A DNA stretch of 56,233 nucleotides, taken from Thermodesulfovibrionales bacterium (GTDB lineage Bacteria; Nitrospirota; Thermodesulfovibrionia; Thermodesulfovibrionales; UBA9159). Positions 29,852 to 46,094 of this stretch are shown piece after piece; position 1 is the stretch's first letter, and every line of letters starts with the position of its first letter. The DNA lies in NCBI GenBank assembly GCA_919901585.1, contig CAKKPH010000085.1, forward strand, positions 1-56,233. Reading direction: 5' to 3'. Below the pieces are notes generated by a model that had not been told where the DNA came from, ran no database searches, and saw nothing but the letters and a program-made list of their open reading frames with translations. The position numbers and the translations under genes were made by a program.

Positions 29852-31087
29852 TTATCCCAGCAACAGATACTCAATCACAGCAGCGACAAAGAGTATCCCG
29901 CAAGACGGCAGGGTTTTCTTATAAATCCCCCACATATCTGCCCTGAAATACTCCCTCGTAAGCACCAGACAGAGGTGAACCGGTGAGAGCAACACGCCTA
30001 TATAACCTGCAGCAAAAGCAAATAACATCTGATTAAGGTGCACCCCGGCAAGGCTGATTAAGAGAGGGAAGGTGCTTCCGACAAACCCGACTGTAAGGCC
30101 AGTGAGCAACCCTGTAATAAAAGGCAAAACAAAGAGCACTGAGATAACCGGGATGCCGCTCTCTGAAAAATATCGGTTAAGCTGTGTTACAGCCCCTGAA
30201 CCCTCCATCGCAAATTTAAACAGCATTACTCCGAAGATCATCACAATGACATTAAGGGCAAAACCATACCTGATGACCTTTATAACCTCCGCAACCCTGA
30301 GCCTGTAAAAGAGGACGATGGAAAAAACTGTCAGGCCGAGAGAATAGTGCAATTCAATATGAAAAACAATCACAAGCAAAAGAACCGCCGCAAGCGGGAA
30401 AAAACTCATCAGGTCGCTTGAATTGCGTTGTCCGGAATAATTATCATGACCGTTTTCTTTCGCTAACGGGACAGCCATCTCCGTCTTAGCAAATCTACCC
30501 TTAATATTTCTCATGCTGAATAAAAAGCCTGTCAACACTATCAGCAGCGCATAAGGCATATTTGCGAGAATAAATCCCCTGAGTTCAATCCCTGTAAGGG
30601 CAGATGCAAGCAGAACGCCCGGGTAAAGAGGCAGTATCAGCTCCCACGGGTGTCTGAACCAGTAATTAATAAAGCCTTTTTCCTCAGGCGGCATGTTCAA
30701 ATCTTTTGTAGTCTCATCAACCATAGGCGCTGAGAAATATGCTCCGCCGAGTGAAGGGAGCAGTCCTATAAGCATCGGCATAGAGACAATAACAGCCCTC
30801 TTCTCCTTAAGAAGATGCCTCGAGGCATCTGTCATCCTTGCAAGCACCTGTTTTTCACGCAATATAATCTCGAACATCCTTATCAGGGTGAGCGCAAAGA
30901 AGAGTTTTATAGTAACGGCATCAGTGATTGTTGTTTTAATCGTCGTAACTATTTTAGGAGCGGGCACGAGATATAGCAAAAAGAGCATGCACGAGGCTAT
31001 AACCAAGACGTAACCGATATCCCATTTTAGCCGCAGGAATACGAGTATGACGACAAAAACAATTGCTATCTTGAAAATATCCACCAT
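29852..31087 (-). CDS. Polytopic inner-membrane protein, possibly a DUF401-family transporter-like protein
   Basis: 411 aa with at least 10 predicted TM helices. The family assignment comes from general resemblance only. Confidence 0.4.
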   Translation of the reverse strand: MVDIFKIAIVFVVILVFLRLKWDIGYVLVIASCMLFLLYLVPAPKIVTTIKTTITDAVTIKLFFALTLIRMFEIILREKQVLARMTDASRHLLKEKRAVIVSMPMLIGLLPSLGGAYFSAPMVDETTKDLNMPPEEKGFINYWFRHPWELILPLYPGVLLASALTGIELRGFILANMPYALLIVLTGFLFSMRNIKGRFAKTEMAVPLAKENGHDNYSGQRNSSDLMSFFPLAAVLLLVIVFHIELHYSLGLTVFSIVLFYRLRVAEVIKVIRYGFALNVIVMIFGVMLFKFAMEGSGAVTQLNRYFSESGIPVISVLFVLPFITGLLTGLTVGFVGSTFPLLISLAGVHLNQMLFAFAAGYIGVLLSPVHLCLVLTREYFRADMWGIYKKTLPSCGILFVAAVIEYLLLG

Positions 31088-31255: not shown

Positions 31256-32548
31256 ATGATAAAACTTAAAGACGTTTCCCAGCCATATTTTATATTATGG
31301 GGTTCTCTATTACTTTCTCTCGCCATAAGCCTCACAGATTCAATATCGACAGCGCATGCCGAAGAATATCCTGCATATTTTTCATCACGTACATATCTGG
31401 GGTTTTACGAAGATATGTACGGCAACCGATATGCTCCTCTCTATGAATACTTTGAAGTTGAATACAATAGGCCCTCAAACGGAATGAAGTTTTATTCTGC
31501 AGGATGGCTTAAGTATGATTTCAGGACATCCGGCGAAAAAAGGACAAACTCTGACCTTGGCCTTGCATATGTTACCTACTCTCCTCCGTCTGATTCAAAC
31601 CTTGTCTTCAACGCAGGAAGGCATTATGTATTTGAAGGCGTCGCCTCGGAACAGATTGACGGCGTTAGCGCAAGATGGGATTTTGCCCGGAACACCGGTC
31701 TTTCACTTTACGGCGGGATACCTGTAGAGACAGATAAGGACGGCAGAGACTCCGACACGATTTACGGATGCAGGCTGTTTGGGAGGATATCAGGCAAGGC
31801 AGAAGCAGGTGTATCATTTCTCAGGGAGGATAATGCAGGAATACGGTACCGCGAGGAGATAGGATTAGACCTATGGGCGATTCCATTCCGGGGAATTGAA
31901 ATACAGGGCATTTCTTCCTACAATGCCATTACAGGAGGTTTCATTGAGCATTCCTACAGCGCAAAAGCTGCCGTATCGAGAAAGATAACCTTAAGAGGCT
32001 TTTTTGTTCATTCGAATTACAGAGACGCATTTTCTTCAGCAACCTTGAGTGTCTTTTCACCGGACAATATTGGGATTAACGGTAAAATGACAAAGTCAGG
32101 GATCTCTGCAGAATACCTTATCTCAGAAGGTATTGCTACAACATTGAATTATACAGGCTATACTTACCAAACTTCAGGTGATGCCCGGCATTACGGCGCA
32201 AGGCTCCACTACAAAGGAACAGACATACATGCCGGTGGCGCATTCAACCGCATGGAAGGAGACACTGCAAGGCTGAGATATACTGAAATGCGTCTATATA
32301 CGGTCAAGCGGCTTGACAAACACAATTTCTCGCTTGATTTCATCACCCTTCGCTATGACAGACCATACAACAATATGAACATCGCTTATAATTTAAACGG
32401 AACTGCAGAGTATGTTATAAACAACAATTTATCTGCATCTCTGAGCATTGACAAGGGCAGGGACCCTGATTATAATCACTTTACAAAGGTGATGCTTTCG
32501 CTTGCCTATACTTTTAAAGGCGCACTTTCGGTTCAGGCAGGCTATTAA
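31256..32548 (+). CDS. Predicted outer-membrane beta-barrel (porin-like) protein, no haem motif
   Basis: Sec signal peptide (cleavage about AHA|EE). It has a long run of alternating hydrophobic/aromatic beta-strand patterns, many Tyr/Gly/Asn turns, and a C-proximal ...LSLAYTF strand. Confidence 0.55.
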   Translation: MIKLKDVSQPYFILWGSLLLSLAISLTDSISTAHAEEYPAYFSSRTYLGFYEDMYGNRYAPLYEYFEVEYNRPSNGMKFYSAGWLKYDFRTSGEKRTNSDLGLAYVTYSPPSDSNLVFNAGRHYVFEGVASEQIDGVSARWDFARNTGLSLYGGIPVETDKDGRDSDTIYGCRLFGRISGKAEAGVSFLREDNAGIRYREEIGLDLWAIPFRGIEIQGISSYNAITGGFIEHSYSAKAAVSRKITLRGFFVHSNYRDAFSSATLSVFSPDNIGINGKMTKSGISAEYLISEGIATTLNYTGYTYQTSGDARHYGARLHYKGTDIHAGGAFNRMEGDTARLRYTEMRLYTVKRLDKHNFSLDFITLRYDRPYNNMNIAYNLNGTAEYVINNNLSASLSIDKGRDPDYNHFTKVMLSLAYTFKGALSVQAGY

Positions 32549-32560
32549 TGAGGAGTTGCG

Positions 32561-33040
32561 ATGAGGTATGATGAATTTAGATATTTAGGAATTTTCCTCA
32601 CAGCTCTCATGGCGCTGAACCATATCTATGCGCTGCCTGCTTTATCAGAGGAAAAAAGAGTTTCTCCCAATAGCCACCACTTTGACCTTATCGAAAAACC
32701 TCTATGCACAGAGTGCCACATGAGCGATGACAGCGCAGATCTGAAGCCCATCTCCTCATTTAACCACAGCAGTGATTTCATCAGCAGCCACAGGTTCTAT
32801 GCAATGCAGCGTTCACAGATATGCACAGTATGCCACAGGGCATCTTTCTGCTCAGACTGCCATACCAACAAATCAGGGCTGAAACCTTCAGACAGGTATC
32901 AGGGCTCCCCTGAACGGTGGCTGCCACACAGGGGAAATTATCTCTTCCAACACAGGATAGACGGCAGCATTGACCCAACAAGCTGCTTCAGGTGTCACGG
33001 AAGACGGAACAACAAGCTATGCGTAAAATGCCACAAATAA
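32561..33040 (+). CDS. Small periplasmic multihaem cytochrome c (5 CxxCH motifs)
   Basis: 159 aa with a signal-like N-terminus. The motifs are CTECH, CTVCH, CSDCH, CFRCH and CVKCH. Confidence 0.8.
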   Translation: MRYDEFRYLGIFLTALMALNHIYALPALSEEKRVSPNSHHFDLIEKPLCTECHMSDDSADLKPISSFNHSSDFISSHRFYAMQRSQICTVCHRASFCSDCHTNKSGLKPSDRYQGSPERWLPHRGNYLFQHRIDGSIDPTSCFRCHGRRNNKLCVKCHK

Positions 33041-33762
33041 GAACCCCCTTTCCTTTACAACATGCATGCTTATGCATCAGGCTTGCCCTCTGTATGTTCT
33101 GCAGTCTAAACATTGCCTTTTTCCTGTGCGCATGCGGCACCAGTTCAGAGTCCGGCGTTTATGACATCAATAAAGGGCATAAATCAGCATGGGCTAATCC
33201 TGAATATATAGGCAAAGACGGATTTCATGGTTCACATGTCAGAGTCGTTGATGGCGAACCGCTGGGGACTGCGCTGTTTTTAAGGAGGTGCGCCGGCTGC
33301 CACGGGAACGAAGGTTCCGGAAAGATCGGCCCTGACATCCGGGGCAGTACTGCCACTCAGATCCGGTATTGCCTTGAGTCTGTCACTTATATGAAATGGC
33401 TTCGGATTATGCGCGATGAAGACCTTCAGGCAATCTCTGATTATCTTGCGAGTTCGCAACCTGCCGGCACGGTGAGCAGGCCTTCCGCTGTAAGCGCTGA
33501 TTCCTGCACTGAGTGCCACGGCACAGACTTAAAAGGAGGTATTTCTAAAATAAGTTGTTATTCGTGCCATAGCGGTCCGGACGGAACAGTAGGACACCCG
33601 GATGGATGGCTTTCACAAAATAGCAACCTTTCGAACTATCACGGCAGATATGCAAAGGACTATGCAACAGCATGTACTGCATGTCATGGCCCTGACCTTA
33701 GAGGTCCGGCTTTGCCAAGCTGCTATAACTGCCATGACGGCAGCGAATGGGCCCCCTTTTAA
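33019..33762 (+). CDS. Lipoprotein multihaem cytochrome c (class I cytochrome c domain plus two doubled-CxxCH units; 5 CxxCH)
   Basis: Lipobox-like FFLCAC. CAGCHGNEGSGKIGPDIRG is a class I domain. CTECHGTDLKGGISKISCYSCH and CTACHGPDLRGPALPSCYNCH are paired CxxCH units. The start codon is uncertain (32992, 33019 or 33028). Confidence 0.75.
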   Translation: MRKMPQIRTPFPLQHACLCIRLALCMFCSLNIAFFLCACGTSSESGVYDINKGHKSAWANPEYIGKDGFHGSHVRVVDGEPLGTALFLRRCAGCHGNEGSGKIGPDIRGSTATQIRYCLESVTYMKWLRIMRDEDLQAISDYLASSQPAGTVSRPSAVSADSCTECHGTDLKGGISKISCYSCHSGPDGTVGHPDGWLSQNSNLSNYHGRYAKDYATACTACHGPDLRGPALPSCYNCHDGSEWAPF

Positions 33763-33814
33763 TGGGGATGGCAAAGGAACAGAGTCCATTATGTAACCGA
33801 AAAGGAGGTTTACA

Positions 33815-34591
33815 ATGATTAAGAAAGTATCATTTTTGTCACCTGCATTACTTTCCCTTTTTTTGCTTGCCGCTGCCTCTAATGCTGCGGACTATCAAAT
33901 CAACATATGGGACAACTTCTTTGACCCGCAGACCATCACTATAAATGCCGGCGACACGGTAACATGGCAGAACTATGGGAACTTCATCCACACTGCAACG
34001 AGCGGCACAAACTGCAATTCCGACGGGAAATTCAATAGCGGCAATCTCTCAAAAAACCAGGCATATACTGTCCAGTTCAACGAGGCAGGGACTTACACTT
34101 ATTTCTGCATACCCCATTGCATGGCAGGCATGACAGGCACAATTACTGTAAATCCATCCACCCTCCCGCTGCCAAGCAGCCAGCAGAGCTTCAGTTATGC
34201 GCCTATATCATCCGCTGTGCTTAACCCGGACCCTTCTCAGGCAAAACCTATCGGCGTAGGTGATATCGCTACCGGAGGCGTTAACCTGGAGTTGGCTGTA
34301 AGCACAACTACATTCTCCGGCCCGGCAGACGTCTATTTTGCAATCGCAGCCCCTGCAATTGATTCCGACATCTACCTGCTTGATAAGAATTATGTCCTGC
34401 AGAAGCTCTCAGCGGCCGGCCTTGTACCATGGAAAGAGGATGTAACTGTGGTGAATGAACAGCTTTTCGGGAAGATAAACGTAACAACATCGGGCTTGCC
34501 GAAAACAACATACTACCTTTATCTTGCGGTAACTCCGGCAAACAGCTTTGGAACATATTATCTCTGGACGACCTATTTCATAGTACAATAG
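33815..34591 (+). CDS. Secreted type-1 copper (cupredoxin, plastocyanin/amicyanin-like) protein with an uncharacterised ~150-aa C-terminal domain
   Basis: Signal peptide, then the cupredoxin pattern ITINAGDTVTWQN...FIHTATSG. The ligand loop YFCIPHCMAGM matches C-x2-H-x4-M. Confidence 0.8.
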   Translation: MIKKVSFLSPALLSLFLLAAASNAADYQINIWDNFFDPQTITINAGDTVTWQNYGNFIHTATSGTNCNSDGKFNSGNLSKNQAYTVQFNEAGTYTYFCIPHCMAGMTGTITVNPSTLPLPSSQQSFSYAPISSAVLNPDPSQAKPIGVGDIATGGVNLELAVSTTTFSGPADVYFAIAAPAIDSDIYLLDKNYVLQKLSAAGLVPWKEDVTVVNEQLFGKINVTTSGLPKTTYYLYLAVTPANSFGTYYLWTTYFIVQ

Positions 34592-34646: not shown

Positions 34647-35057
34647 TCACTTTTTTACATTTCTGAATGTAAAAACTACCTGGTCCTCTTGCTTGTTCTT
34701 AGCTATTTTAACTATAAGGTCCCACTCGCCTTCCATTGTAAAATATACGTCCTCTATTGTATAAACACCATCCCCTTTTTCTTTTATCTTTGTCTTTTTG
34801 GAAGAGCCATGGCTGTGCACAGTCATCCATGGAGTTACTTCAATGAGCGCTCCTTCAACTTTTACCTTTGAATCACGTTCAAAAACTTTCAGTATAGCAG
34901 TATTGTTAATCCCCATTTGTGGAGGGTCAGGTTTCACCTGAAGTTGAACTACGAAGGTTCCGTTAAGTGATTTCTGTTCTATAACGTCTGCCGCACTGTC
35001 TTGACTAAAGCTGAATATCCATAAAAATATAACAAATACTGCCGTCTTAAGTATCAT
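34647..35057 (-). CDS. YtkA/FixH-like secreted small protein (possible metal-handling Ig-like domain)
   Basis: 136 aa with a signal peptide and the pattern ...VQLQVKPDPPQMGINNTAILKVF...IEVTPWMTVHSHGSS...GDGVYTIEDVYFTMEGEWDLIV, typical of YtkA-like domains. It has a Met/His cluster WMTVHSH. Confidence 0.6.
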   Translation of the reverse strand: MILKTAVFVIFLWIFSFSQDSAADVIEQKSLNGTFVVQLQVKPDPPQMGINNTAILKVFERDSKVKVEGALIEVTPWMTVHSHGSSKKTKIKEKGDGVYTIEDVYFTMEGEWDLIVKIAKNKQEDQVVFTFRNVKK

Positions 35058-35081
35058 GACATCCTCCTTTTTTATAACACC

Positions 35082-35693
35082 TTAATGTGGCGGCATCGGT
35101 ATCCATACCGGAATGATATTATTTACAAACGTAAATTTTTTTGCCAGTTCCCTGTCGTCAGCAAAATAGGGTTTCAGATAGATATAAAAGTCTTCATTCT
35201 TTTCTGCTATGTCTTCCTTGGAAATGGCATCTGAAGCTACATAGGCAACACTGTTTACTCTCAGATGCATATACCCTGGAAACACCTGCTCAAAATTCTT
35301 GAAAGGCACCTCTATCAGTTTTTCAACGGCGAGCGGTTTCTCCAGCTTGATTACGCTGGTCTCTCCTGTCTTATTTGCCAGATCATGAAGGGGAACTTCC
35401 TTCCATAATGTCCCTACCTGAACAAAACACCTGATCGAAGGCGTCATGAGGTAAAGATCATCCGTTGGAAATGGGTTGTCATAGTTGAGTTTTAACCTGT
35501 ACCGGTCTCCTGCATATGTGATGTCCTTGATATCAGATTTCAGTGAATACCACGCGAGTCTTTCCAGTTTTTTCTTGAGGGCAGCTCTTTCCTCTAAAAA
35601 CTTATTCTGCCGGTGGCCTATGAAGTAATCTATCGCCAGGGCAGAAAGCAAGATCAAGAGTACAGTAATTATAATCTTATATCTTTTTTCCAT
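35082..35693 (-). CDS. Uncharacterised N-terminally membrane-anchored protein (paralogue A)
   Basis: 203 aa with one N-terminal TM helix. It shares blocks with the next gene (LEERAALKKKLERLAWY, FVQVGTLWKEVPL, GYMHLRVNSVAYVASDAI). I recognise no family. Confidence 0.6.
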   Translation of the reverse strand: MEKRYKIIITVLLILLSALAIDYFIGHRQNKFLEERAALKKKLERLAWYSLKSDIKDITYAGDRYRLKLNYDNPFPTDDLYLMTPSIRCFVQVGTLWKEVPLHDLANKTGETSVIKLEKPLAVEKLIEVPFKNFEQVFPGYMHLRVNSVAYVASDAISKEDIAEKNEDFYIYLKPYFADDRELAKKFTFVNNIIPVWIPMPPH

Positions 35694-35746
35694 CCTATTT
35701 TATAAGTCCAGTACTTGTGTTGTACGTCAAACTCATGTTACTCCGC

Positions 35747-36346
35747 CTATCGCAACAGGGTTTTCACCCTACCTTTCTTCTTATCATCTCTAATGTAAAT
35801 GAACATTTCTTCATCTTTCTCAATTATATCTTCCCGGACTATAGCCTCTGCAGCTACATAAGAAATACTCTTAACCTTGACATGCATGTATCCTGACATG
35901 AGTTCTTCATAATTTTTATGGGGTATAGTAAATTTTACTGCTAAGGTGTACGGGGCATCAAGCCTCTCCACCGGATACTCCCCCCGTTTCTCCCTTGTGT
36001 CAATTACAGGGACCTCCCTCCATAGAGTGCCGACCTGTACAAAGACCTTCACTGCGAATATCATTATCCACATTTCCTCTTCAGGACGGATATTTTCGTA
36101 TATAAGCTTCATCGCATACTTTCTATCTTTTGGGTTATATGAGATTTCACCTATATTGGTTCTCTCAAGGTAATACGCAAGACGCTCAACTTTTTTCTTA
36201 TGAGCCATCCTTTCTTCGAGCAGTCTATTCTGCCTGTACTCCACTACAAAATCCACAATGAGTAATATTAATATCAGGAAGATGATACCAGTTAATAAAC
36301 GGTATGCGGTATTTTCTCTTTTCACATTCCTTCTCTGTGGATCCAT
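35747..36346 (-). CDS. Uncharacterised N-terminally membrane-anchored protein (paralogue B)
   Basis: 199 aa with one TM helix. Its shared blocks are LEERMAHKKKVERLAYY, FVQVGTLWREVPV and GYMHVKVKSISYVAAEAI. Confidence 0.6.
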   Translation of the reverse strand: MDPQRRNVKRENTAYRLLTGIIFLILILLIVDFVVEYRQNRLLEERMAHKKKVERLAYYLERTNIGEISYNPKDRKYAMKLIYENIRPEEEMWIMIFAVKVFVQVGTLWREVPVIDTREKRGEYPVERLDAPYTLAVKFTIPHKNYEELMSGYMHVKVKSISYVAAEAIVREDIIEKDEEMFIYIRDDKKKGRVKTLLR

Positions 36347-36789
36347 CGGTCGGTACGTGGACTTATCCAGTAGTACTCATCGCCGCTCTTTGTGAAGACC
36401 TCTTTTCCGCTGTCAGCAGTAAATCGTAATCTATACGTTAATATCAGGGAAACATCACCTTCATATGTCCTGTAAAGCTGTGGCATATCAAGCGGCACCT
36501 TTGCAATAACGATCATTTTCCTCTGTGCCGTCGAATATAAAATTCCGGATAGGCTGTCGGTGATCCTGTCGCTCAATAAATCACGCCCTGTGTCTGTCTG
36601 GACATAAAACCTTTTTTCAAAACCCGTGACCATGATGTTTTGCTTTGAGTTGTTCATCATGATGATTTCTATCCTGTATTCATCGTTGCCTGAGTAAGAT
36701 ATATTACTGACCTCTATACCCATATAGTCGATCAGCAATCGCTTTTCAAAAGAAAAGGCATCATTTAGGGGAAAGAATAATACCAACAA
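36322..36789 (-). CDS. Uncharacterised protein (155 aa), beta-rich
   Basis: The ORF lies in an operon-like position between the ABC ATPase and paralogue B. The TTG start is uncertain and there is no clear signal peptide or recognisable family. Confidence 0.4.
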   Translation of the reverse strand: MLVLFFPLNDAFSFEKRLLIDYMGIEVSNISYSGNDEYRIEIIMMNNSKQNIMVTGFEKRFYVQTDTGRDLLSDRITDSLSGILYSTAQRKMIVIAKVPLDMPQLYRTYEGDVSLILTYRLRFTADSGKEVFTKSGDEYYWISPRTDRWIHREGM

Positions 36790-36841
36790 AACTGTACCTA
36801 TGTGACAGATATAAAAAATATCATTCCTCCAAAAAATGCCA

Positions 36842-37558
36842 TCAAACTTCGCAGATTACGAACTTATGGTTGTACGTATCTTCAATAACTTCACCGTCCC
36901 GAAGCCTTATCACACGCTTGGCATGGCTTGCCTTCTGGGGGTCATGAGTAACCATCACGATTGTCAGACCCTCACTGTTCAGGTTCGCAAAGAGGTCCAT
37001 GATTTCTTCTCCTGTCTTTGAATCGAGGTTTCCGGTAGGCTCATCTGCAAGGATTATGGCAGGGTCATTCATAAGGGCCCTTGCAATAGAAACCCTCTGA
37101 GCCTCTCCGCCGCTCAGTTGGTGGGGAAGATGTGTTGCCCTTTTTCCAAGCCCAACCTTTTCTAACATTTTGAGAGCATACTCTTTATCCTTTGCCTTCC
37201 CCTTAACAGGACGGAAGGCAAAAGGAAGCATCACATTTTCAATAGCTGTCAGTGAAGATAGCAGTCTCGCCTCTTGAAATATATATGCCACCTTTGAACG
37301 CCTGAGATTAAGGAGTGCCTTTTCCGACAGGTTGTCTATCCTTGTATTCCCGATATATACCTCCCCTTCTGTAGGGAAGTCTATGCCTCCCAGTATGTTA
37401 AGAAGCGTAGACTTGCCCGAGCCGCTTGGTCCCATCACAGCGATATACTCGCCGGTTTTGATCTCAAGGCTGACATTGTTCAGCGCTGCTACCGGTGATT
37501 CGCCGATCTTGTATTGCTTCGAAATATTTTTTAACAGTACGATGCCATCATTAACCAT
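36842..37558 (-). CDS. ABC transporter ATP-binding protein (MacB/LolD-like)
   Basis: 238 aa with Walker A GPSGSGKST, signature LSGGEAQRVSIARA and Walker B ILADEPTGNLD. Confidence 0.92.
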   Translation of the reverse strand: MVNDGIVLLKNISKQYKIGESPVAALNNVSLEIKTGEYIAVMGPSGSGKSTLLNILGGIDFPTEGEVYIGNTRIDNLSEKALLNLRRSKVAYIFQEARLLSSLTAIENVMLPFAFRPVKGKAKDKEYALKMLEKVGLGKRATHLPHQLSGGEAQRVSIARALMNDPAIILADEPTGNLDSKTGEEIMDLFANLNSEGLTIVMVTHDPQKASHAKRVIRLRDGEVIEDTYNHKFVICEV

Positions 37559-37567
37559 AACCCCTCC

Positions 37568-38350
37568 CTACAGAGACTTGAAGGCTTCCGCAACCCTTAT
37601 CTTTGACGCATAGATTGCAGGATAAATACTGGCTGCAATCGTGGTTACAGTACCGAGTATTATTGCCATAACAAAAAATGACGGATTAATCTTTATCGCT
37701 ATATCTTTGAAGAGTATCGGGCCGACGATATATGCCAGGCCGCTCCCGATAATAAAGCCAATGACTCCCCCGGTAATACCGATCAGGGCTGCCTCGTAAA
37801 GGAACAACCTGATAAGCTGGCCTTTTGATGCACCCATTGCCTTCAGGAGCCCTATGTCCCGCAAACGGCTGTGGATGGAACCGAGTATTATATTGAAGAC
37901 CCCAATACAACTGATTATTAGCGCCGCTACCACAAAGCTCAAGAGCAGTGTAGCTGTTTTCTGAAATATCTTTGATTGTGCAGTAGCTATCTCACTCTGT
38001 GATGTGGCCCTTACACCCAGTATCTTTTTATTTATCTCGATAGCAGCATCTCCTACAGGACATTTTGGACACATTGCCCTAACATTCATCATCGAGACCT
38101 TTCCCAGCTTCCCGAATACGGTCTGGCAGGCCTTAAGGTTCATGAAAACCATATAATCGTCAGGGGAGTCAGTCTCTCGTAAAATACCTGTAACCTTCAT
38201 TTTGCTCTGCGCTATATCAAGGACATCTCCCACCTTTGTGTCCGTTATGACAGCGAAAAGCTTCCCGGCCATTACCTCATCGTCATTTACCATGAATCTG
38301 CCCTCAGAAATTTCCCACCAGAACCTCGCCACCTGTTCTTTCTGCAGCAT
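37568..38350 (-). CDS. C-terminal part (periplasmic domain remainder plus FtsX module) of a MacB-like ABC permease interrupted by an in-frame TAG
   Basis: 260 aa with the FtsX TM bundle and DIGLLKAMGASKGQLI. It is in the same reading frame as 38390-38782, separated by one TAG plus 13 sense codons. Confidence 0.7.
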   Translation of the reverse strand: MLQKEQVARFWWEISEGRFMVNDDEVMAGKLFAVITDTKVGDVLDIAQSKMKVTGILRETDSPDDYMVFMNLKACQTVFGKLGKVSMMNVRAMCPKCPVGDAAIEINKKILGVRATSQSEIATAQSKIFQKTATLLLSFVVAALIISCIGVFNIILGSIHSRLRDIGLLKAMGASKGQLIRLFLYEAALIGITGGVIGFIIGSGLAYIVGPILFKDIAIKINPSFFVMAIILGTVTTIAASIYPAIYASKIRVAEAFKSL

Positions 38351-38389
38351 TACACCACCGACAATGACATCTCTACCCTTGACCGTAGT

Positions 38390-38782
38390 CTATTCATATA
38401 GCCTGGGGGCAAAGGTAGGCGGCGGGAAGGCTGCTCCGCCTATAGTGCCATCCTGAAACACAAGGGCGCCCATTTTTTCCCATCCTGAAACTATTGCATC
38501 CTGGTAAACCTTTTCTATTTCAGGAATGGCAGCCTCGGGTATATACGTTCCTGTACCAATTCCAAAGGTCTTCAGACTCTGCTGCGATTTGCTATCCACA
38601 GGTGTTATGGTGAGGCTGTGTCCGTAACGTGCGATCACCTGGAAAACCTCCCTCTGGCCTGAAGATGCTGTTATCATAACGGATATGAGCATAGAGACCG
38701 CTATCGCTATCCCAAGAGAGGTATATATGGTCCTCATCTTCCTTTTTCTTACCTCTTTCATAGCGATCATGTAAAGCTTCAT
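38390..38782 (-). CDS. N-terminal part (TM1 plus start of periplasmic domain) of the same interrupted MacB-like permease
   Basis: 130 aa starting MKLYMIAMKEVRKRKMRTIYTSLGIAIAV..., the typical FtsX-family N-terminus. It ends at TAG (38392-38390). The two fragments plus the linker total about 404 codons, the same size as the three intact permeases in this window. Confidence 0.7.
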   Translation of the reverse strand: MKLYMIAMKEVRKRKMRTIYTSLGIAIAVSMLISVMITASSGQREVFQVIARYGHSLTITPVDSKSQQSLKTFGIGTGTYIPEAAIPEIEKVYQDAIVSGWEKMGALVFQDGTIGGAAFPPPTFAPRLYE

Positions 38783-38800
38783 AGCATCCCCCTCAATGTA

Positions 38801-39478
38801 CTATTCTGAGAAAACTCCGTCTTTCATCTTATATATTTTATCAGTCATTGCTGCAAGCTCAAGGCTGTGTGTGACGAGCAGGAAAGTGATCTGATCCTTC
38901 TCATTCGCATCAGAAAAAAAGTCCATTACTTCAGATTCTGTCTCTGCATCCAGATCACCTGTAGGCTCGTCAGCAATGATAATAGAGGGTTTGTTAATAA
39001 ATGCCCGCGCGATCGCAACCCTCCTTTGCTGCCCCCCGGATAATTCTGATGGAAATGAATTCATCTTGTCTGACATCCCCATAGCTGACAAAATCTCTTC
39101 AGCATAATCATAAATTTCCTTCCTGTTCCCTTTCTTTTTAAAAATTACCGGGAGCACAACATTGTCAATCGTACGGAGGGTCGGTATAAGACTCGCAAAT
39201 TGGAAAATAAAACCAAACCTTTCGTTCCTTACAGTAGACAGGTTACTGTCGTTTAATTTCCATATGTCTGTATTGTCAATATAAACAGTTCCTTTAGTCG
39301 GCTCTGTTAATCCGCCGATAATACTTAGGAGCGTAGTCTTTCCTGAGCCTGAATGGCCCACTATGGAAATAAAACTGCCCTTTTCTATTTCGAGGTTCAC
39401 GGAACGTAGTGCTTCAATCTTCTGGCCGCCTACATCATAGACCTTCCATAGATCTTTTATAACTATTAAATTTCCCAT
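38801..39478 (-). CDS. ABC transporter ATP-binding protein (MacB/LolD-like)
   Basis: 225 aa with Walker A GHSGSGKTT, signature LSGGQQRRVAIARA and Walker B IIADEPTGDLD. Confidence 0.92.
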   Translation of the reverse strand: MGNLIVIKDLWKVYDVGGQKIEALRSVNLEIEKGSFISIVGHSGSGKTTLLSIIGGLTEPTKGTVYIDNTDIWKLNDSNLSTVRNERFGFIFQFASLIPTLRTIDNVVLPVIFKKKGNRKEIYDYAEEILSAMGMSDKMNSFPSELSGGQQRRVAIARAFINKPSIIIADEPTGDLDAETESEVMDFFSDANEKDQITFLLVTHSLELAAMTDKIYKMKDGVFSE

Positions 39479-40711
39479 CTATTCACCGGTACGTATCGCA
39501 TCATAGGGATGCAGTTTGCTGCCCTTGAGTGCAGGATAAAAGGTCCCTGCTATTCCGACAAGGATTGCTACACAGATCGATCCAAGAGCAATAAAAACTA
39601 TAGAATCAACTGAGGGCCATATATACGGCATATTGAGGGCCTTAAGGTTGAATATAATCGTCCTCTGATATATACGCATGATGGCTATACCAAAGACCAC
39701 ACCCAGAAATCCCCCCAGGCCTGTAAGGAGGGTTGCCTCATACAAGATCAATCTGAATATAGATGCCTTTCTTGCTCCGAGTGCCCTTAAAAGACCTAAT
39801 TCTCTCTTCCTTTCATTGATAATTGTCGAAAAAATGGCGCCTATCATCAGAGTATTTGCAATAATCAGCACTCCACTAAGTATAATTGTACTGCTAAAAA
39901 GTGTAACAAGGTTCTGCCTGACGGACGTTATTATATTGCCGGCAGTTATTACCTTCACACCGGGATCTTTGCTGATGGTAAAAGAGATATACGGCAGTTT
40001 AGCTCCGACTTCTAACTGAATCAGGGCGGCTGATATCTCGCCTCTCACGAGTTTTAAGGGGACAACGCCTTTAATGTTTTGGGATTCCTCTGCCATGGAA
40101 TAGGCCTTCTCTATATTTATGAATATAGCATTGTCATAAAGGCCGATCCCTGTCCTGCCGAGCTTGCCGTAAACCCTAAGGGTCTGGCCATAAAAAAAGA
40201 CCTTATCCCCCACATTATAGGTATTTAATCCTCCGATTATCGCATCATCAATCTGGAGAGGACCTTCGAGTTTGTCTTCAAGCCACGGCATTACGGTAAA
40301 GTCACTCTGCGGGTCAAAACCGATAATAAATGCGTTGCCGATAACGCAGCAGTCACCTTCTACACTCGTAAGGAAGAGCTGAGGAGACACTTTTCTTACT
40401 CCCTTTACTGACGATATTGTCTGCATTAACCCTCTATTCATATAAAAGACCGAAGGCTCACCGGTCAGAAGGGCAGACTTCATGCTTATCATCGAACCTT
40501 TGGGCACAACGAGGAGGTCTGCACCGAATTTTGACAGACCTTTCTTCAGGCTGCTATTGACCCCCCACATCAGTGTAGAAGTGGAAAAAATAGCTCCGCT
40601 CACAATGGCTATTGCGAGAACCAGTGCTGAAGTCCTAAAGGTTCTGCGCATTAGGTTCTGAGAAGCCAGGTATATAAGTGACAGCTTATCGCTTATTTGT
40701 TTATCTGTCAT
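39479..40711 (-). CDS. ABC transporter permease, FtsX/MacB-like
   Basis: 410 aa with an N-terminal TM helix, a periplasmic domain, and a C-terminal FtsX module containing RELGLLRALGARKASIF. Its stop abuts the ATPase start. Confidence 0.88.
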   Translation of the reverse strand: MTDKQISDKLSLIYLASQNLMRRTFRTSALVLAIAIVSGAIFSTSTLMWGVNSSLKKGLSKFGADLLVVPKGSMISMKSALLTGEPSVFYMNRGLMQTISSVKGVRKVSPQLFLTSVEGDCCVIGNAFIIGFDPQSDFTVMPWLEDKLEGPLQIDDAIIGGLNTYNVGDKVFFYGQTLRVYGKLGRTGIGLYDNAIFINIEKAYSMAEESQNIKGVVPLKLVRGEISAALIQLEVGAKLPYISFTISKDPGVKVITAGNIITSVRQNLVTLFSSTIILSGVLIIANTLMIGAIFSTIINERKRELGLLRALGARKASIFRLILYEATLLTGLGGFLGVVFGIAIMRIYQRTIIFNLKALNMPYIWPSVDSIVFIALGSICVAILVGIAGTFYPALKGSKLHPYDAIRTGE

Positions 40712-40783: not shown

Positions 40784-42256
40784 TCACGTAGTGGTGCTGC
40801 GACTTATCGCCAGCTCTTTCAGGCTTCTCGGCACTATAACACTGTCATGATGTCCTGCGCCGCTCGGGAGGAAACCTATAAGCTTATCACTCTTCACATC
40901 TATTATAAACATACCTGATACTGTTTTTTGGTATCCGCTAAAGACTCCGAGGAGATGTTTGCCGTCGCCTGTCACACCCATTGTATGGACGTCTGGTCCG
41001 ATCTCTATCTCCTTTATAACCTCCCATTTAACAGCATCTATCACTGCAACACTGTTAGGAGTCGGAGATGGCCACCACAAGGCAACATAGACCTTTTTTG
41101 CATCAGGAGTGAATCCCATATGGAAGGTCTGAGGGTAAGTTCCTCTCCATTCCGGTTTCGTTACAACAGCTTTCTGCTTCCAGTTCATAGGATTTGATTG
41201 GTCGGTTGAATCATACACATATATGGCATTCTCCATTACCGCACCCATGAAGAGGAAGTGTTTCCCGTCAGGCGAAAACCCTGCCTGATGACCATAGTTC
41301 TCTACTTTTGCTACGGAGATCTCCCAGGTGTCTTTATCGATTTTCTTGAGTGCCTGCATCGGCTTGTTTCTGGCTGAGTACATAGCTGCAACAGGCTCAT
41401 AATTGGCCGTGTCAAAGACTACTGAGACACCTGATGTCCTGAGTGCAGCTACTGCCCATTTGCCCCTTGGGTCAAAGAGGACTGCGTCAAGTCCGCATAC
41501 ATTCGTTGCCCTCGGACCTGAAACCTTGCCCTCAACGAGAAAATTCTCTCCGCCGGGAACGAGTTCCCAATCAATCTTGATACCCTTTAGGCCTTTGTAG
41601 TCATATTTACCTGTCTTCGGGTCAGGGTGCAATTTCTTTACTATGAGTTTGCCCCCACCGCTCCATGCCTCTTTTACATTCTTGATATTAGGTATCCAGT
41701 CAAAGAAAACAGCTGCGTCAACCTTTGATGTTTCCCTATCGAATACACCAAAAATGTCCTTCTGCCCGTCTGAAACAGTAAACTTCTTTGCATCGTGTGA
41801 GATAGTCACATGGACTCCTATGCCGAGTCCGGTTGTCTCTGCAACATCCTCAATGAGATTCATCTTTGTACCGTCGTACTTAACCCTGTAGATATGAAAA
41901 CCCTCGGCGGGTTCTTTGACTTTAGTGGGAATACCGTAAATATAGAGGTTTTTTCCTCCCTGCGAATTCACAATAAACTCAAAACCCTTATAGGGGTCTT
42001 CAGATGGGAATGCAGCTATATGATGGATAATCGGATTTGTGTCACCATAGTTAACAAAAGAAATCCATGCAAGGGTTCTCCCTGTTGACATATCGTGAGC
42101 TGCAACAGTCCCGGCAAATTTCCCAGGCAAAAGGAAAATATATTTTCCTATTTTCTCGTAAACATCATTTAACGACGCACCCTGCGAAGCTGCCGGCAGA
42201 CTAAATATGGAAAGCAAAATAAAAAGAGCAACAATCTTTTTCTTACAGTGCTGCAT
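40784..42256 (-). CDS. Secreted beta-propeller copper enzyme, thiocyanate dehydrogenase (TcDH)-like
   Basis: 490 aa with a Sec signal peptide (AAS|QGA region) and repeated propeller-blade patterns. K46, H78-H79, H149, E231, D257, H323, F378-H379, H424 and H470 reproduce the spacing of the TcDH active-site residues as I remember them (K103, H135/H136, H206, E288, D314, H381, F436/H437, H482, H528). A strong AGGAGGT SD is present. Confidence 0.7.
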   Translation of the reverse strand: MQHCKKKIVALFILLSIFSLPAASQGASLNDVYEKIGKYIFLLPGKFAGTVAAHDMSTGRTLAWISFVNYGDTNPIIHHIAAFPSEDPYKGFEFIVNSQGGKNLYIYGIPTKVKEPAEGFHIYRVKYDGTKMNLIEDVAETTGLGIGVHVTISHDAKKFTVSDGQKDIFGVFDRETSKVDAAVFFDWIPNIKNVKEAWSGGGKLIVKKLHPDPKTGKYDYKGLKGIKIDWELVPGGENFLVEGKVSGPRATNVCGLDAVLFDPRGKWAVAALRTSGVSVVFDTANYEPVAAMYSARNKPMQALKKIDKDTWEISVAKVENYGHQAGFSPDGKHFLFMGAVMENAIYVYDSTDQSNPMNWKQKAVVTKPEWRGTYPQTFHMGFTPDAKKVYVALWWPSPTPNSVAVIDAVKWEVIKEIEIGPDVHTMGVTGDGKHLLGVFSGYQKTVSGMFIIDVKSDKLIGFLPSGAGHHDSVIVPRSLKELAISRSTTT

Positions 42257-42356: not shown

Positions 42357-42372
42357 TGCAATTTGGGTGCCA
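42357..42372 (-). promoter_or_regulatory. Sigma-54 (-24/-12) promoter upstream of the TcDH-like gene
   Basis: The reverse complement is TGGCACCCAAATTGCA, an exact TGGCAC-N5-TTGC, about 100 nt upstream of the ATG at 42256. A sigma-54-dependent activator is encoded 0.8 kb away. Confidence 0.8.
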
Positions 42373-42623: not shown

Positions 42624-42917
42624 CTATAATCTCTCCAGATGGGGGTGACAACGCCGGCAATCAAGGTGAGGACAACCCTTGAAAGGCTCCTTCATCAGGT
42701 TAGAATGTATTGACTCAATCCAGAGTTTTTTCAGCAGATCAAGGTTGAATGTACGGGATGTATGGCATGAGATTGTCCTCTCATGACACTCGCTGCAGAG
42801 ACGGTATGTTTTCACAGTACTGCTGCTTAATAAAACAGTTGAGAAGCCTATTGCGATAAAAGCAACCAGTAGGCTTGTCAGGATTAAATGCCTCCGGCTT
42901 GTCTTGAACATATGCAT
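42624..42917 (-). CDS. Small membrane-anchored dihaem cytochrome c
   Basis: 97 aa with an N-terminal TM helix (LILTSLLVAFIAIGFSTVLL) and two CxxCH motifs (CSECH, CRRCH). It has its own sigma-54 promoter. The SD is weak. Confidence 0.55.
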   Translation of the reverse strand: MHMFKTSRRHLILTSLLVAFIAIGFSTVLLSSSTVKTYRLCSECHERTISCHTSRTFNLDLLKKLWIESIHSNLMKEPFKGCPHLDCRRCHPHLERL

Positions 42918-42945: not shown

Positions 42946-42961
42946 AGCAATTTGGGTGCCA
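42946..42961 (-). promoter_or_regulatory. Second sigma-54 (-24/-12) promoter, upstream of the dihaem cytochrome gene
   Basis: The reverse complement is TGGCACCCAAATTGCT. The 15-nt core is identical to the first promoter, and the flanks are also similar (about 45-nt duplicated cassette). Confidence 0.75.
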
Positions 42962-43018: not shown

Positions 43019-44404
43019 TCAGGAAGCCCGTGACCTTAAGGAACAGAGGTCAATATTATACTCCTTCATTTTTCTCCAGAGGGTAGTCCGTCCGATTTTC
43101 AGCTCCCGGCATACCTCAGCAAGATTGTGAGGGTGCCTTTCGATGCTCTGGATTATTATTTTTTTCTCCCACTCGTCAAAATCCATGGGTCTGTTTTCAG
43201 AAGCAGCTTGTTTCGAAGCAGGACAGGAGACCTTTGAAAGGGGAAACGGCATGCTATCAGAACTGATCATGCCCGAATCAGTCAGAGCGACTGCATAACA
43301 GATTATGTTATAAAGCTCCCTGACATTGCCGGGATAATCATAGGCACAGATCCTCTCGATAACGCCTGGGGCAAAACCGGTAATTTTTTCACCTTTTTTG
43401 CCGCCACTGCATTCTGACAGAAACTTCTGAGCCAGAAAAGGTATATCTTCCTTATGCTCTCTGAGCGGAGGCATATTAATATGCAATACATTTATCCTGT
43501 AATAGAGGTCTTCCCGGAACTCATGCTTTTGTACAGACTCCAGAAGATCGGCGTTTGTAGCAGCAAGCACCCTAACGTCCACAGGAATCCCGTGGTCACT
43601 GCCGACCTTTCTGATAATCTTATCCTGCAGTACGCCGAGCAGCTTAGCCTGAAGGGGTTTAGGTATTGACCCTATCTCATCGAGCAGTATGCTTCCCCCG
43701 TTGGCAGCCTCAAAGAGACCTTTCCTTCCCATTATGGCACTGGTAAAAGCACCTCTTGTATGCCCGAACACTTCGCTCTCAAAGAGGTTTTCGGGTATAG
43801 ATGTGCAATTCACCGATATGAAGGGCCCCTTTGCCCTTGAGCTGTTCAAGTGAATTGCCCTGGCAAGAAGATTCTTACCGGTGCCGGTCTCTCCTGTTAT
43901 GAGAACCGGAAAGTCATTGCCGGCAATCTTGCGGAGACGAGCCTTTACATCCATCATCAAAGGACTCTTTCCTACAATCATTGAAAGGCCTTCATCTTCA
44001 GCAGCAATGTCATAGAGCATCCTGCTCATCTCAGCATCTGTTTCAGCTGTCTGAATAGCCTTTTTTGCCCTGTGCAGTATCTCGTCATATTCAAACGGCT
44101 TGGTTATATAATCATAAGCACCCATTTTCATCGCAATAACCGCCGATTCAATAGTCCCGTACCCCGTCATTATTATTACCGGTGTCTTCCGGCCTTTGTT
44201 CTTTATATGTTCGAGCAGACCTATGCCGTCCATGCCGTCCATGCGGAGATCGGTAATCACCAGATCTATATTGTTGCAGTTCATTTGTTTAACAGCGTTT
44301 TCTCCGCCGTCAGCCTGAAATATCTGATAGCCCTCTCTCCTGAAAAGGATCGAGAGGCTTTTTCTCATCCCTTCTTCATCATCTACTATTAGTATTGACG
44401 ACAT
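43019..44404 (-). CDS. Sigma-54-dependent (NtrC-family) response regulator
   Basis: 461 aa with a receiver domain (ILIVDDEEGMRKSL, DLRMDGMDG) and an AAA+ sigma-54 interaction domain (GETGTGKN, a GAFTSA variant of the GAFTGA loop). It ends in a C-terminal Fis-type HTH. Confidence 0.93.
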   Translation of the reverse strand: MSSILIVDDEEGMRKSLSILFRREGYQIFQADGGENAVKQMNCNNIDLVITDLRMDGMDGIGLLEHIKNKGRKTPVIIMTGYGTIESAVIAMKMGAYDYITKPFEYDEILHRAKKAIQTAETDAEMSRMLYDIAAEDEGLSMIVGKSPLMMDVKARLRKIAGNDFPVLITGETGTGKNLLARAIHLNSSRAKGPFISVNCTSIPENLFESEVFGHTRGAFTSAIMGRKGLFEAANGGSILLDEIGSIPKPLQAKLLGVLQDKIIRKVGSDHGIPVDVRVLAATNADLLESVQKHEFREDLYYRINVLHINMPPLREHKEDIPFLAQKFLSECSGGKKGEKITGFAPGVIERICAYDYPGNVRELYNIICYAVALTDSGMISSDSMPFPLSKVSCPASKQAASENRPMDFDEWEKKIIIQSIERHPHNLAEVCRELKIGRTTLWRKMKEYNIDLCSLRSRAS

Positions 44405-46094
44405 TCACTTCCTCCGTTTTATTGTTCGCTGTGTTTGGAGAAATAGGAAGCTCAATCCTCAGTTCCGTCCCTCTGCCTATTTCGCTCAAGCCATAAACCT
44501 GCCCTCCATGCTGCCTTATTATCTGCTGGACGATAGAAAGTCCGAGCCCTGACCCTTTCGCCTTTGTGGAATAAAACGGCTGAAAAGCCCTCGCAAGTGT
44601 TTCGTTAGCCATCCCAGAACCCGTATCTGTTATAACAATGGTTACTGAGTCATGCTGTTTGTAAGGCTCTACCTTTGCGACATAAAGGGCAGTCACCTTA
44701 AGGGTTCCTCCCATAGGCATTGACTGTATCGAATTAATTAATACGTTCCAAAAAACCTGTTTTACAGCACCCCTGTCCGCAAATATGTCAGGCATTCCCC
44801 TGTCGTAAGACCGCTGAACCGTAATAGCCGGGTTATTCATTCCATCGCTTGTGAGCAAAGACAATGTCTCGTCTATAAGACTGCAAAGGTTTATATATGA
44901 TCTGTTCAGGTCAGGAGGCTTCGCAAAGCGCAGAAAATCAGAAATAATGGTATTGAGTCTGTTAACCTCCTGTTCGATAATATCAAGCAGTTCCGTATCC
45001 TCACCGGCAAGCCTTGTATGACGCTTGAATATGCCGACCGAGTTCTTTATTGCGCCGAGAGGGTTCCTTATCTCATGCGCTATAGTGGCTGCCAGTTTTC
45101 CTACAGATGCGAGCTTTTCGGATTCGAGGAGCTCGCTCTGGGTGTTCTTGAGGTTCTCATATGCCATTCTGAGTTGTCCGACGATATCCGTCAGTTTCTT
45201 TCTTGAGGACTGCAGCTCGTCAAACGACTTGGTAAATCCATGGGCTAACCCTATTATAAGACCGGAAAATATGACCAGCTTAATCACATGCCAATACCAC
45301 CAACTGGGGTCCCATAACCGGGAGAGTGAAAAAAGCACCTCGCTTTCAAAAAAAAGAAAGGACGACAAGGCAAAGATATGAAAAAGGATGTCATTGGTCC
45401 GGTTGAAATACTTTAAGAAAAAATAGCCCGCAAGCAGGAAAAAAACGGAAGAAAGGACATTGAATACTATGGTCGAGGAGGTGAATTCACCTCTTATGGG
45501 AAAAGTTACCGGCGTGTGATGAGAAGCGCTTATTTCAATAACATTAGGGAGTGGAGAAGGATATTTTGAGAGCAATAATGCAAAAGCGAAAATTGCTGTA
45601 ATCCCGGTTATTAGCATCATCTGTCTGATATAGGGAGAATCTTTATTGTCCCTGGCTACAGACAATGAGCTCAGGAAAAAAAATAAGCCACCGCCAAAGG
45701 CACTTAGTGAATGAAACCAGACAAAAAGGTTGGTGCAGTGATTGGAATAGGCATGGAACATGTCAAAGACCCCCATCGAGACGAAACCGAGGAAAAGGTA
45801 AAAATTGCACCTCTTGCCGGATGAACGGTATTCCCTGTAAATCACATAGGCTATTATAATTGAGATTATTCCACAGTAAGACTCAAAGAGGGAGTGTGTA
45901 AACGTGTCTGTCCAGAATACATTATTACGGCTAAACAACTTGCTCGCAGCAGACATCAAAAATATGACAATGATCAGAGCCCCAGAAAGCAGATAAAATC
46001 TGTTTTTGAGATGAGCGGCCTCGTTACTGGAAGGGTCGATCCGGTAGACTATATTGTCAAAAAGGGCTTTCTCCTCATTTTCCCGGACTTCCAT
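44379..46094 (-). CDS. Sensor histidine kinase with a multi-pass membrane N-terminal sensor domain
   Basis: 571 aa with about 7 TM helices. It has a coiled coil, the H-box AHEIRNPLGAI, and the HATPase motifs DTGSGM and GSGLGLSIV. It overlaps the regulator gene by 26 nt. Confidence 0.9.
   Translation of the reverse strand: MEVRENEEKALFDNIVYRIDPSSNEAAHLKNRFYLLSGALIIVIFLMSAASKLFSRNNVFWTDTFTHSLFESYCGIISIIIAYVIYREYRSSGKRCNFYLFLGFVSMGVFDMFHAYSNHCTNLFVWFHSLSAFGGGLFFFLSSLSVARDNKDSPYIRQMMLITGITAIFAFALLLSKYPSPLPNVIEISASHHTPVTFPIRGEFTSSTIVFNVLSSVFFLLAGYFFLKYFNRTNDILFHIFALSSFLFFESEVLFSLSRLWDPSWWYWHVIKLVIFSGLIIGLAHGFTKSFDELQSSRKKLTDIVGQLRMAYENLKNTQSELLESEKLASVGKLAATIAHEIRNPLGAIKNSVGIFKRHTRLAGEDTELLDIIEQEVNRLNTIISDFLRFAKPPDLNRSYINLCSLIDETLSLLTSDGMNNPAITVQRSYDRGMPDIFADRGAVKQVFWNVLINSIQSMPMGGTLKVTALYVAKVEPYKQHDSVTIVITDTGSGMANETLARAFQPFYSTKAKGSGLGLSIVQQIIRQHGGQVYGLSEIGRGTELRIELPISPNTANNKTEEVNVVNTNSR

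Follow-up and report, generated by a model that had tools for sequence, protein, structure and literature searches.

What do the uncharacterized genes that trail the thiocyanate dehydrogenase (TcDH) gene contribute, and is their place beside that enzyme more than an accident of one genome? The question is raised by a Nitrospirota metagenome-assembled genome (MAG), in which we analyzed one complete contig of 56,233 bp, hereafter the window. On its minus strand, the TcDH gene is followed by a compact module of genes whose products carry the annotation "hypothetical protein" at NCBI (AABY42_04630 to AABY42_04670). The in vivo assembly of the three-copper site of TcDH was explicitly stated as unknown by Berben et al. 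(PMC5744179). Our comparison across genomes firmly supports the module as a dedicated accessory system of TcDH, built on a type VII ATP-binding cassette (ABC) complex with a family-specific periplasmic subunit. As to its task, we propose an ATP-driven periplasmic machine that would mature the trinuclear copper site of TcDH, in analogy but not homology with NosDFY-NosL, a proposal to which we give an even chance of being correct.

The tie to TcDH is borne by 80 genome loci that were fetched via a TcDH alignment and that span Nitrospirota, Beta/Gamma- and Alphaproteobacteria, Terriglobia, Vulcanimicrobiota, a planctomycete, and a Mycobacterium MAG (about six phyla). A homologue of the module permeases adjoins TcDH in 75 of the 80 loci, and a homologue of the 203-aa protein of the window in 71 (69 full-length copies and 2 fragmentary ones). 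Every one of the 69 full-length copies lies on the TcDH strand, 53 downstream and 16 upstream of the enzyme gene, and 8 of the 9 loci without this protein are truncated by a contig boundary on the side in question. The only locus that clearly has no module while showing full flanks is that of Tautonia (L031); there, in Tautonia sociabilis, a P-type ATPase with a His-rich N terminus (12179-14248 of that locus) stands beside the TcDH homologue. In the reverse direction, a profile of the 203-aa protein retrieved 30 metagenome loci, and TcDH was present in 7/7 of those with enough upstream DNA. Co-occurrence with TcDH, on which the sequence-only reading had staked its idea of an accessory module, was thus found both ways. 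It depends on the part considered: permease, ATPase, and 203-aa type are universal, whereas the 155-aa and YtkA genes were found in Nitrospirota only. Since all-against-all clustering of open reading frames (ORFs) was noisy owing to antisense ORFs in high-GC genomes, it served only to pick candidates, which were then checked against Pfam.

The module is not a set of nine independent parts: its core combines a permease of the FtsX/MacB type with an ATPase and the 203-aa type, and the gene arrangement, recurring beside TcDH in dozens of genomes, is far beyond chance. Alphaproteobacteria have the minimal form, with one permease, one ATPase, and one 203-aa-type protein. The Beta/Gammaproteobacteria have two permease/ATPase pairs and, in most cases, a paralogue of the 203-aa protein (the A type, see below); Nitrospirota have the two pairs, the A-type paralogue, and the 155-aa and YtkA genes, to which a second Nitrospirota clade adds a third permease. 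Beside the minimal module, 36 alphaproteobacterial and Terriglobia loci (within L030-L079; e.g., L063, 6107-6778) also encode a membrane protein of ~223 to 240 aa with a weak J-like (Pam16) match (E 7e-5), which is absent elsewhere.

In the window, the nine co-oriented and tightly packed minus-strand ORFs reported by the sequence-only reading are all present where it placed them. From TcDH onward, the ORF coordinates give intergenic spacings of 72, 0, 18, 9, 52, -25 (an overlap), 53, and 24 nt; the spacing of 0 to 55 nt that had been claimed holds elsewhere but not between TcDH and the first permease, where the gap is 72 nt. TcDH and the module are likely transcribed as a single predicted operon. 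A scan of the module for sigma-70 promoters and terminators returned counts near chance, with no internal signal standing out.

The gene at the head of this row (40784-42256, minus strand) is a genuine TcDH orthologue. Its 490-aa product, a seven-bladed copper propeller with a Sec-type signal peptide, matches the PDB entries 8q9x (E 1e-200) and 5f75 (E 4e-193) over residues 23 to 490 in phmmer searches, and conversion of thiocyanate to cyanate and sulfur is its predicted activity. In a 17-sequence TcDH alignment (A1), H78, H79, H149, H323, H379, H470, D257, K46, and E231 are invariant; these columns are candidate ligands of the trinuclear copper site and would correspond, at an offset of 57 to 58, to the ligand numbering of 5F75. 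The Sec export that had been claimed for the propeller also stands up, as a property specific to the clade of the window: its signal is of the Sec type and has no twin-arginine motif in 8/8 TcDH sequences of that clade, whereas the motif is found in 12/12 sequences of Nitrospirota clade 2, 11/13 of Beta/Gammaproteobacteria, and 46/47 of Alphaproteobacteria. Because of this Sec-type signal, both the folding and the metallation of TcDH would be periplasmic in the clade of the window. A TatC gene is encoded at 48041-48892 of the window, 6 kb from the TcDH that has lost its twin-arginine translocation (Tat) signal.

The four ABC genes that follow TcDH on the minus strand belong to the FtsX/MacB (type VII) class. 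Permease 1 (410 aa; 39479-40711) matches FtsX (PF02687, E 1e-16) and, with its MacB-type periplasmic domain between the first two helices, scores above the Pfam cut-off for MacB_PCD (PF12704; 28.6 bits versus 27); its closest solved structures are 5xu1, MacB, and LolF. Permease 2 (37568-38782) is of the same type (PF02687, E 9e-19), the two fragments into which it is split scoring 17.8 and 19.6 bits against PF12704, under the cut-off. ATPase 1 (38801-39478; ABC_tran, E 2e-34) is a LolD/MacB/FtsE-like nucleotide-binding subunit, its best NCBIfam matches being LolD, MacB, and FtsE, all of which fall far short of the equivalog cut-offs. It is 40% identical to ATPase 2 (36842-37558; ABC_tran, E 7e-35), whose best NCBIfam matches are MacB and LolD. 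The LolCDE equivalog cut-offs of NCBIfam were likewise not reached (lolCE, 28 to 47 bits versus 362; LolD, 231 bits versus 308). None of the nine module proteins matched an HlyD or TolC family in Pfam or NCBIfam, and no gene for a MacA/HlyD membrane-fusion protein or an outer-membrane channel is conserved across the 80 loci.

Both permeases carry cysteine motifs on the periplasmic side. In permease 1, a Cys-Cys loop lies at residues 121 and 122 of the periplasmic domain, and the corresponding G-x-[C/H]-C (CC/HC loop) is kept in 30/30 copies from Nitrospirota and Beta/Gammaproteobacteria; Reyranella-type permeases have HH at this position, which is deleted in the fused type of Alphaproteobacteria. 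Permease 2 carries a periplasmic RAMC-x-x-CPVGD (CxxC), of which RAMC-x-x-CPVG is kept in 23/23 orthologues. The loci of Nitrospirota clade 2 (L018-L029, L048) encode a third FtsX-type permease without CxxC between permease 2 and ATPase 2 (e.g., L019, 6400-7590), and their ATPase 2 copies have Cys-rich C-terminal tails such as CxPC.

What had been read as an interrupted permease is one gene, permease 2, broken by one TAG codon in frame (38390-38392). In L081, the closest relative, the codon is GAG, and every orthologue examined has Glu, within the motif FAPRLYEE; permease 2 is otherwise intact and 94% identical to the L081 copy. A nonsense mutation of recent date, polymorphism among strains, or an error in base calling could account for the G-to-T change. 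Pyrrolysine insertion or readthrough was ruled out: the relatives have GAG, and TAG ends 12 of the 45 long ORFs, so there is no sign of TAG recoding in the window.

The component that sets the module apart is the 203-aa protein (35082-35693, minus strand). It consists of a membrane helix, a long stalk helix, an immunoglobulin (Ig)-like beta-sandwich, and a short C-terminal tail; its AlphaFold 2 model (pLDDT, the predicted local distance difference test score, 79) shows an N-terminal helix of 50 residues, comprising membrane segment and stalk, followed by the beta-sandwich and the tail. Across 90 sequences of this B type from about six phyla (alignment A2), Q92, H143, L173, P175, P195, M200, P201, and H203 are invariant and M142 is kept in 88/90, so that the family signature is a YMH motif together with a C-terminal IPMPPH (the MPPH tail). 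The family is small, with 218 representative clusters among 1.84 billion proteins (E <= 1e-3). An iterative hidden Markov model search of the family drifted into ABC ATPases and was redone with a clean A2 profile; the cause of the drift was a real fusion. In many Alphaproteobacteria, the B-type domain is joined to the C terminus of the ABC ATPase (L030, 466 aa; L039, 474 aa), and the fusion recurs in the independent gene calls P0208, P0215, and P0226, with ABC_tran at the N terminus. Because of this fusion, the 203-aa type would be a subunit of the ABC complex, and since the fused ATPase is cytoplasmic, the single helix would cross the membrane outwards and place the Ig-like domain in the periplasm. 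P0325, a protein of 7327 aa, weakly matches the middle of the 203-aa profile at six places, which suggests a distant relationship to the Ig-like repeats of giant surface proteins.

Two further genes of the module appear to belong to the same unnamed Ig-like family. The 199-aa protein (35747-36346, minus strand) had been read as a paralogue of the 203-aa protein, and at 44% identity (E 3e-49) it is one. This A-type paralogue has the N-terminal membrane helix, the stalk helix, and the Ig-like domain with YMH, without the MPPH tail; across 41 A-type sequences, confined to Nitrospirota and Beta/Gammaproteobacteria, Y, H, Q, W, and N columns are invariant and Y-x-H is kept, while the tails differ. 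The 155-aa protein (36322-36789, minus strand) is a probable third paralogue, without a membrane anchor and with a conserved C-terminal tail W-x-H-R-E-G-M; its orthologues were found in Nitrospirota loci only. Profile-profile comparison (hhalign) against the 203-aa family gave a probability of 94.5% (E 8e-8) when 13 orthologues were used and of 72% (E 3e-5) when the alignment was smaller; an earlier hhalign comparison with A2 (99.9%) was discarded because the query alignment contained 203-type sequences. The AlphaFold 2 model of the 155-aa protein (pLDDT 83) has the same strand order as that of the 203-aa protein, and in Foldseek searches of the PDB the two models largely share their neighbors (ApaG, 3isy, the Kir C-terminal domain), which, TMEM106B included, are generic Ig-like structures at TM-scores of 0.3 to 0.5. 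The structural check proposed in the sequence-only reading thus yielded a shared Ig-like fold for these two models and no functional lead. As that reading had held, none of the three proteins has a family that can be named in Pfam or NCBIfam. Nor did any of them match a PDB family; for the 203-aa protein, the A2 profile returned noise only from the PDB sequences.

The start of the 155-aa gene is uncertain. The ORF opens with TTG, and its orthologues are 168 to 180 aa long with signal-like N termini, one of them (P0357) with a normal ATG start. Just upstream of the ORF (36789-36841) lies an in-frame, signal-peptide-like hydrophobic core without ATG, GTG, or TTG, along with a GGAGG followed by an ATG in another frame; the situation is the same in L081 (~9384-9450). 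The gene may use a non-canonical start or carry a shared frameshift.

Around the constant core, the copper genes vary by lineage: YtkA, PCuAC/Sco, or CopCD. In the window, the last gene of the module (34647-35057, minus strand) encodes a secreted YtkA-like protein of 136 aa (PF13115; 47.1 bits versus a cut-off of 25.9, E 4e-12). It does contain the WMTVHSH motif noticed in the sequence-only reading, and PWM-x-x-H-x-HG is conserved in 28 YtkA-like orthologues, all of them in Nitrospirota-type TcDH loci. From its family and its M-x-x-H-x-H motif, we propose this protein as a putative copper chaperone; work on B. subtilis implicates CtaK, the founder of the YtkA family, in the assembly of CuA (PMC9145763, PMC13344008). 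Sulfuritalea-type loci instead encode PCuAC (E 1e-33), SCO1/SenC (E 3e-47), and a TlpA-like protein, and Thioalkalivibrio TcDH loci encode CopC/CopD. No relation between the MPPH-tail family and YtkA was detected by hhalign (probability of about 1%). In Beta/Gammaproteobacteria (L005-L008, L012, L015, L017, L100), the position after the MPPH-tail gene, where Nitrospirota have YtkA, is taken by a lipoprotein or secreted protein family of ~190 aa (e.g., L015, 16666-17244), with conserved ENRG...P.H and YHDDATD and without a Pfam or NCBIfam match; it is the second "hypothetical" gene of the Thioalkalivibrio operon. Tried as a relative of YtkA or of the Ig-like family, it showed no detectable relationship to either.

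We propose the following model for the maturation of the TcDH copper site. The operon would be transcribed from a sigma-54 promoter, and Sec would export the TcDH of the window's clade unfolded, folding and copper loading then taking place in the periplasm. MacB-type transporters work by mechanotransmission; likewise, the type VII (MacB/FtsX-like) complex would hydrolyze ATP in the cytoplasm to move its domains in the periplasm, no solute crossing the membrane. The 203-aa protein would be a subunit of this complex, its N-terminal helix lying beside the permease and its stalk holding the Ig-like domain in the periplasm, where the YMH motif and the flexible Met-Pro-Pro-His tail would bind Cu(I) and offer it at the deep funnel in the center of the propeller. 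Upstream copper donors would be the YtkA-like protein and the permease loops with CxxC and CC/HC, a role that PCuAC/Sco or CopCD could fill elsewhere, and the 199- and 155-aa paralogues would be lineage-specific extra subunits. Four elements of this model we infer: that copper is bound, in which direction it is passed on, that ATPase and periplasmic domains are mechanically coupled, and how the operon is structured in the organism of the window.

The invariant Met/His motifs, the periplasmic Cys motifs of the permeases, and the neighboring lineage-specific copper chaperones lend circumstantial support to copper-site maturation as judged from sequence. It is the best-fitting reading because Met and His are the residues that stay invariant throughout, the neighbors that vary are copper chaperones, the machine faces the periplasm, and NosDFY-NosL provides a precedent. 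A more ambitious version would see here a previously unrecognized class of ATP-driven periplasmic metallocentre insertase, in which a MacB-like ABC complex with a Met/His-tailed Ig subunit, universal for TcDH-family propellers and evolved independently of NosDFY, pushes MPPH-carried copper into a buried site by mechanotransmission; this we put forward tentatively, as somewhat more apt to fail than to hold.

Several points weigh against copper-site maturation. Recombinant apo-TcDH was reportedly activated by copper salts in vitro (Tikhonova et al., 2020), so the module would not be chemically indispensable and would answer a kinetic or low-copper requirement in vivo. No MacB-type system is known to handle metals. 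The fold of the unnamed family is a generic Ig-like sandwich without an informative structural neighbor. The minimal fused modules of Alphaproteobacteria lack the permease Cys motifs, which hence cannot be central to the mechanism. In the window itself, the nonsense codon in permease 2 means that part of the module is possibly inactive here, unless the base call is wrong. Finally, the Met, His, and Cys residues could be there for another purpose, for instance to make protein contacts or to handle sulfane sulfur.

Among the alternatives, the most probable, which we nevertheless regard as unlikely, is that the ABC complex and its Ig-like subunits deal with the product of TcDH, extracting zero-valent sulfur or polysulfide and passing it on. 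The active-site funnel would be kept clear and the sulfur handed downstream, much as LolCDE and MacB extract hydrophobic cargo on the periplasmic side. The permeases are of the right class, since type VII ABC systems extrude or extract substrates from the periplasm or the outer leaflet, and the periplasmic CC/HC and CxxC motifs could hold persulfides. Moreover, the induction of module and TcDH only with thiocyanate as substrate (PMC5744179) fits a role in turnover equally well. However, the residues that are universally invariant in the 203-aa type are Met and His, not Cys, and it is the Cys motifs that are missing from the minimal alphaproteobacterial modules. A membrane-fusion or outer-membrane partner for extrusion is not conserved, the lineage-specific neighbors are copper chaperones and not sulfur carriers, and spending ATP on each two-electron turnover would be costly for a lithotroph.

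Less probable still is a role in general copper traffic, in which the ABC complex would supply or remove periplasmic copper, for uptake or detoxification, without acting on TcDH directly. Copper acquisition is what Berben et al. proposed (PMC5328954, PMC5744179), and the copper-ligand-like motifs and copper chaperone neighbors of the module would suit it. FtsX/MacB-type transporters, however, have no transmembrane import path, and a system of this kind would be expected beside other cuproenzymes too, whereas the MPPH-tail family is very small and was seen only beside TcDH (7/7 informative reverse loci).

Upstream of TcDH, the minus strand of the window carries a two-component system that likely regulates the operon: a sigma-54 response regulator (43019-44404; Sigma54_activat, E 2e-64, and Response_reg in Pfam) and a MASE3 histidine kinase (44379-46094; HisKA, HATPase_c, and MASE3 in Pfam). 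Only two perfect matches to TGGCAC-N5-TTGCW occur in the 56-kb window, both on the coding strand and between the sigma-54 regulator gene and TcDH. One of them, the -24/-12 promoter-like element TGGCACCCAAATTGCA (42357-42372, minus strand), lies ~100 nt upstream of the TcDH start codon; the other (42946-42961, minus strand) lies 570 nt further upstream and precedes the small gene described below. The gene of the sigma-54 activator is adjacent. Perfect matches just upstream of TcDH were also found in L001, L019, L021, L029, and L081. The two-component pair stands beside the module in Nitrospirota and Beta/Gammaproteobacteria, not in the loci of Alphaproteobacteria. That the transporter is instead a co-sensor like BceAB/BceS, reporting thiocyanate or TcDH activity to the adjacent kinase and sigma-54 regulator, is very improbable: Bce-type sensing does use FtsX-family permeases, but some 45 alphaproteobacterial loci keep permease, ATPase, and MPPH-tail protein without a two-component system nearby, and an invariant Met/His tail has no obvious signaling role.

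Between the second promoter match and TcDH lies a minus-strand gene (42624-42917) for a small protein of 97 aa that is anchored by one membrane helix and bears two haem motifs of the CxxCH form, CSECH and CRRCH. No Pfam family was found for it, and weak homologues occupy the same position in L001, L004, L081, L085, L086, and L091. This protein may serve TcDH by accepting or relaying electrons.

On the other side of the module, a convergent plus-strand block (31256-34591 of the window) is common only to the window and its closest relative L081. It encodes an outer-membrane-protein-like protein of 430 aa without a family, two proteins of 159 and 256 aa with five CxxCH motifs each, and a 258-aa cupredoxin (PF00127, E 1e-13); it may constitute a clade-specific electron-acceptor chain replacing the cytochrome c552 and FccAB of Thioalkalivibrio. 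This cytochrome block is flanked by a gene for a DUF401 membrane protein (29852-31087).

What our study adds is the two-way linkage of core and TcDH across phyla, an unnamed protein family with its MPPH signature, the fusion of that family to the ATPase, and a pattern of motifs and chaperones pointing to copper insertion. The nine-gene puzzle is reduced to a three-part core and four mutable residues, M142, H143, M200, and H203, and with core and candidate residues defined, the maturation question becomes directly testable. If the proposal is true, the module would be a second, independently evolved ABC-driven assembly system for a periplasmic copper centre and the first metal-related job of a MacB-type transporter. 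The module should then make it easier to produce active TcDH in other hosts for the bioremediation of thiocyanate. The unnamed family, with its A, B, and 155-aa types, merits a family definition, since the members seen are all annotated "hypothetical protein."

The closest known system is the TcDH operon of Thioalkalivibrio, described by Berben et al. in 2017: behind TcDH come two pairs of permease and ATPase, one or two hypothetical proteins, and the two-component system of the sigma-54 type, with copCD, tatA, and fccAB on the flanks (PMC5328954). The statement in the sequence-only reading that such loci hold ABC, copper-handling, and sigma-54 two-component genes was accurate. Its view that the module is undescribed needs qualification, as both the core synteny and the co-induction by thiocyanate were published in 2017 (PMC5328954, PMC5744179), with the function left open there. 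In RNA sequencing of Tv. thiocyanoxidans grown on thiocyanate versus thiosulfate, TcDH rose with a log fold change of 7.5, the four ABC genes with 4.5 to 6.75, and the hypothetical protein with one N-terminal helix with 5.1 (PMC5744179). Copper uptake or acquisition was suggested, the function being left to biochemical study (PMC5328954, PMC5744179), and we found no later literature on TcDH accessory genes.

The order of the core genes is the same in both organisms, namely TcDH, permease, ATPase, permease, ATPase, and then a one-helix hypothetical protein, with the sigma-54 two-component system adjacent. That hypothetical protein is the MPPH-tail orthologue (L017, 15212-15958; C terminus LFISMPPH). 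Unlike the window, Thioalkalivibrio has a Tat-exported TcDH, CopCD, TatA, and FccAB as neighbors, neither the 155-aa nor the YtkA gene, and an unrelated lipoprotein of ~190 aa after the MPPH-tail gene; Tv. thiocyanoxidans also has no A-type paralogue. The window differs in turn by the Sec signal on its TcDH and by two-component genes placed upstream. The window thus holds the Nitrospirota form of a published and functionally unsolved operon; its TcDH is exported through Sec, 155-aa and YtkA genes are added, and permease 2 contains a nonsense codon.

Among type VII transporters, the module resembles MacAB-TolC, LolCDE, and FtsEX-EnvC in its four-helix FtsX domain, its MacB-like periplasmic domain, and its LolD/MacB/FtsE-like ATPases, and it resembles LolC/LolE in having two different permeases. 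It differs from all of these in having no membrane-fusion protein, TolC, LolA, or EnvC partner, and in possessing an additional subunit with a single membrane pass, in some lineages fused to the ATPase, as well as the periplasmic CxxC and CC/HC motifs. The 136-aa protein, for its part, is like CtaK in its YtkA domain with conserved Met and His, and PCuAC and Sco replace YtkA at other TcDH loci; unlike the module, CtaK, PCuAC, and Sco work without an ABC motor, and the site they serve is CuA in haem-copper oxidases.

The functional parallel lies with nitrous oxide reductase. The CuZ site of NosZ needs the NosDFY ABC complex and the Cu(I) chaperone NosL (PMC6530538, PMC8457098). As in our proposal, a seven-bladed propeller in the periplasm receives its multinuclear copper site from an ABC ATPase and permease, a periplasmic partner, and a dedicated Cu(I) chaperone. 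The parts, however, are not homologous: no module protein matched the NosD, NosY, or NosL families in Pfam or NCBIfam, NosY is an ABC-2-type permease, NosD is a beta-helix, and CuZ also needs sulfide, whereas the TcDH module relies on FtsX/MacB-type permeases and a single-pass Ig-like partner.

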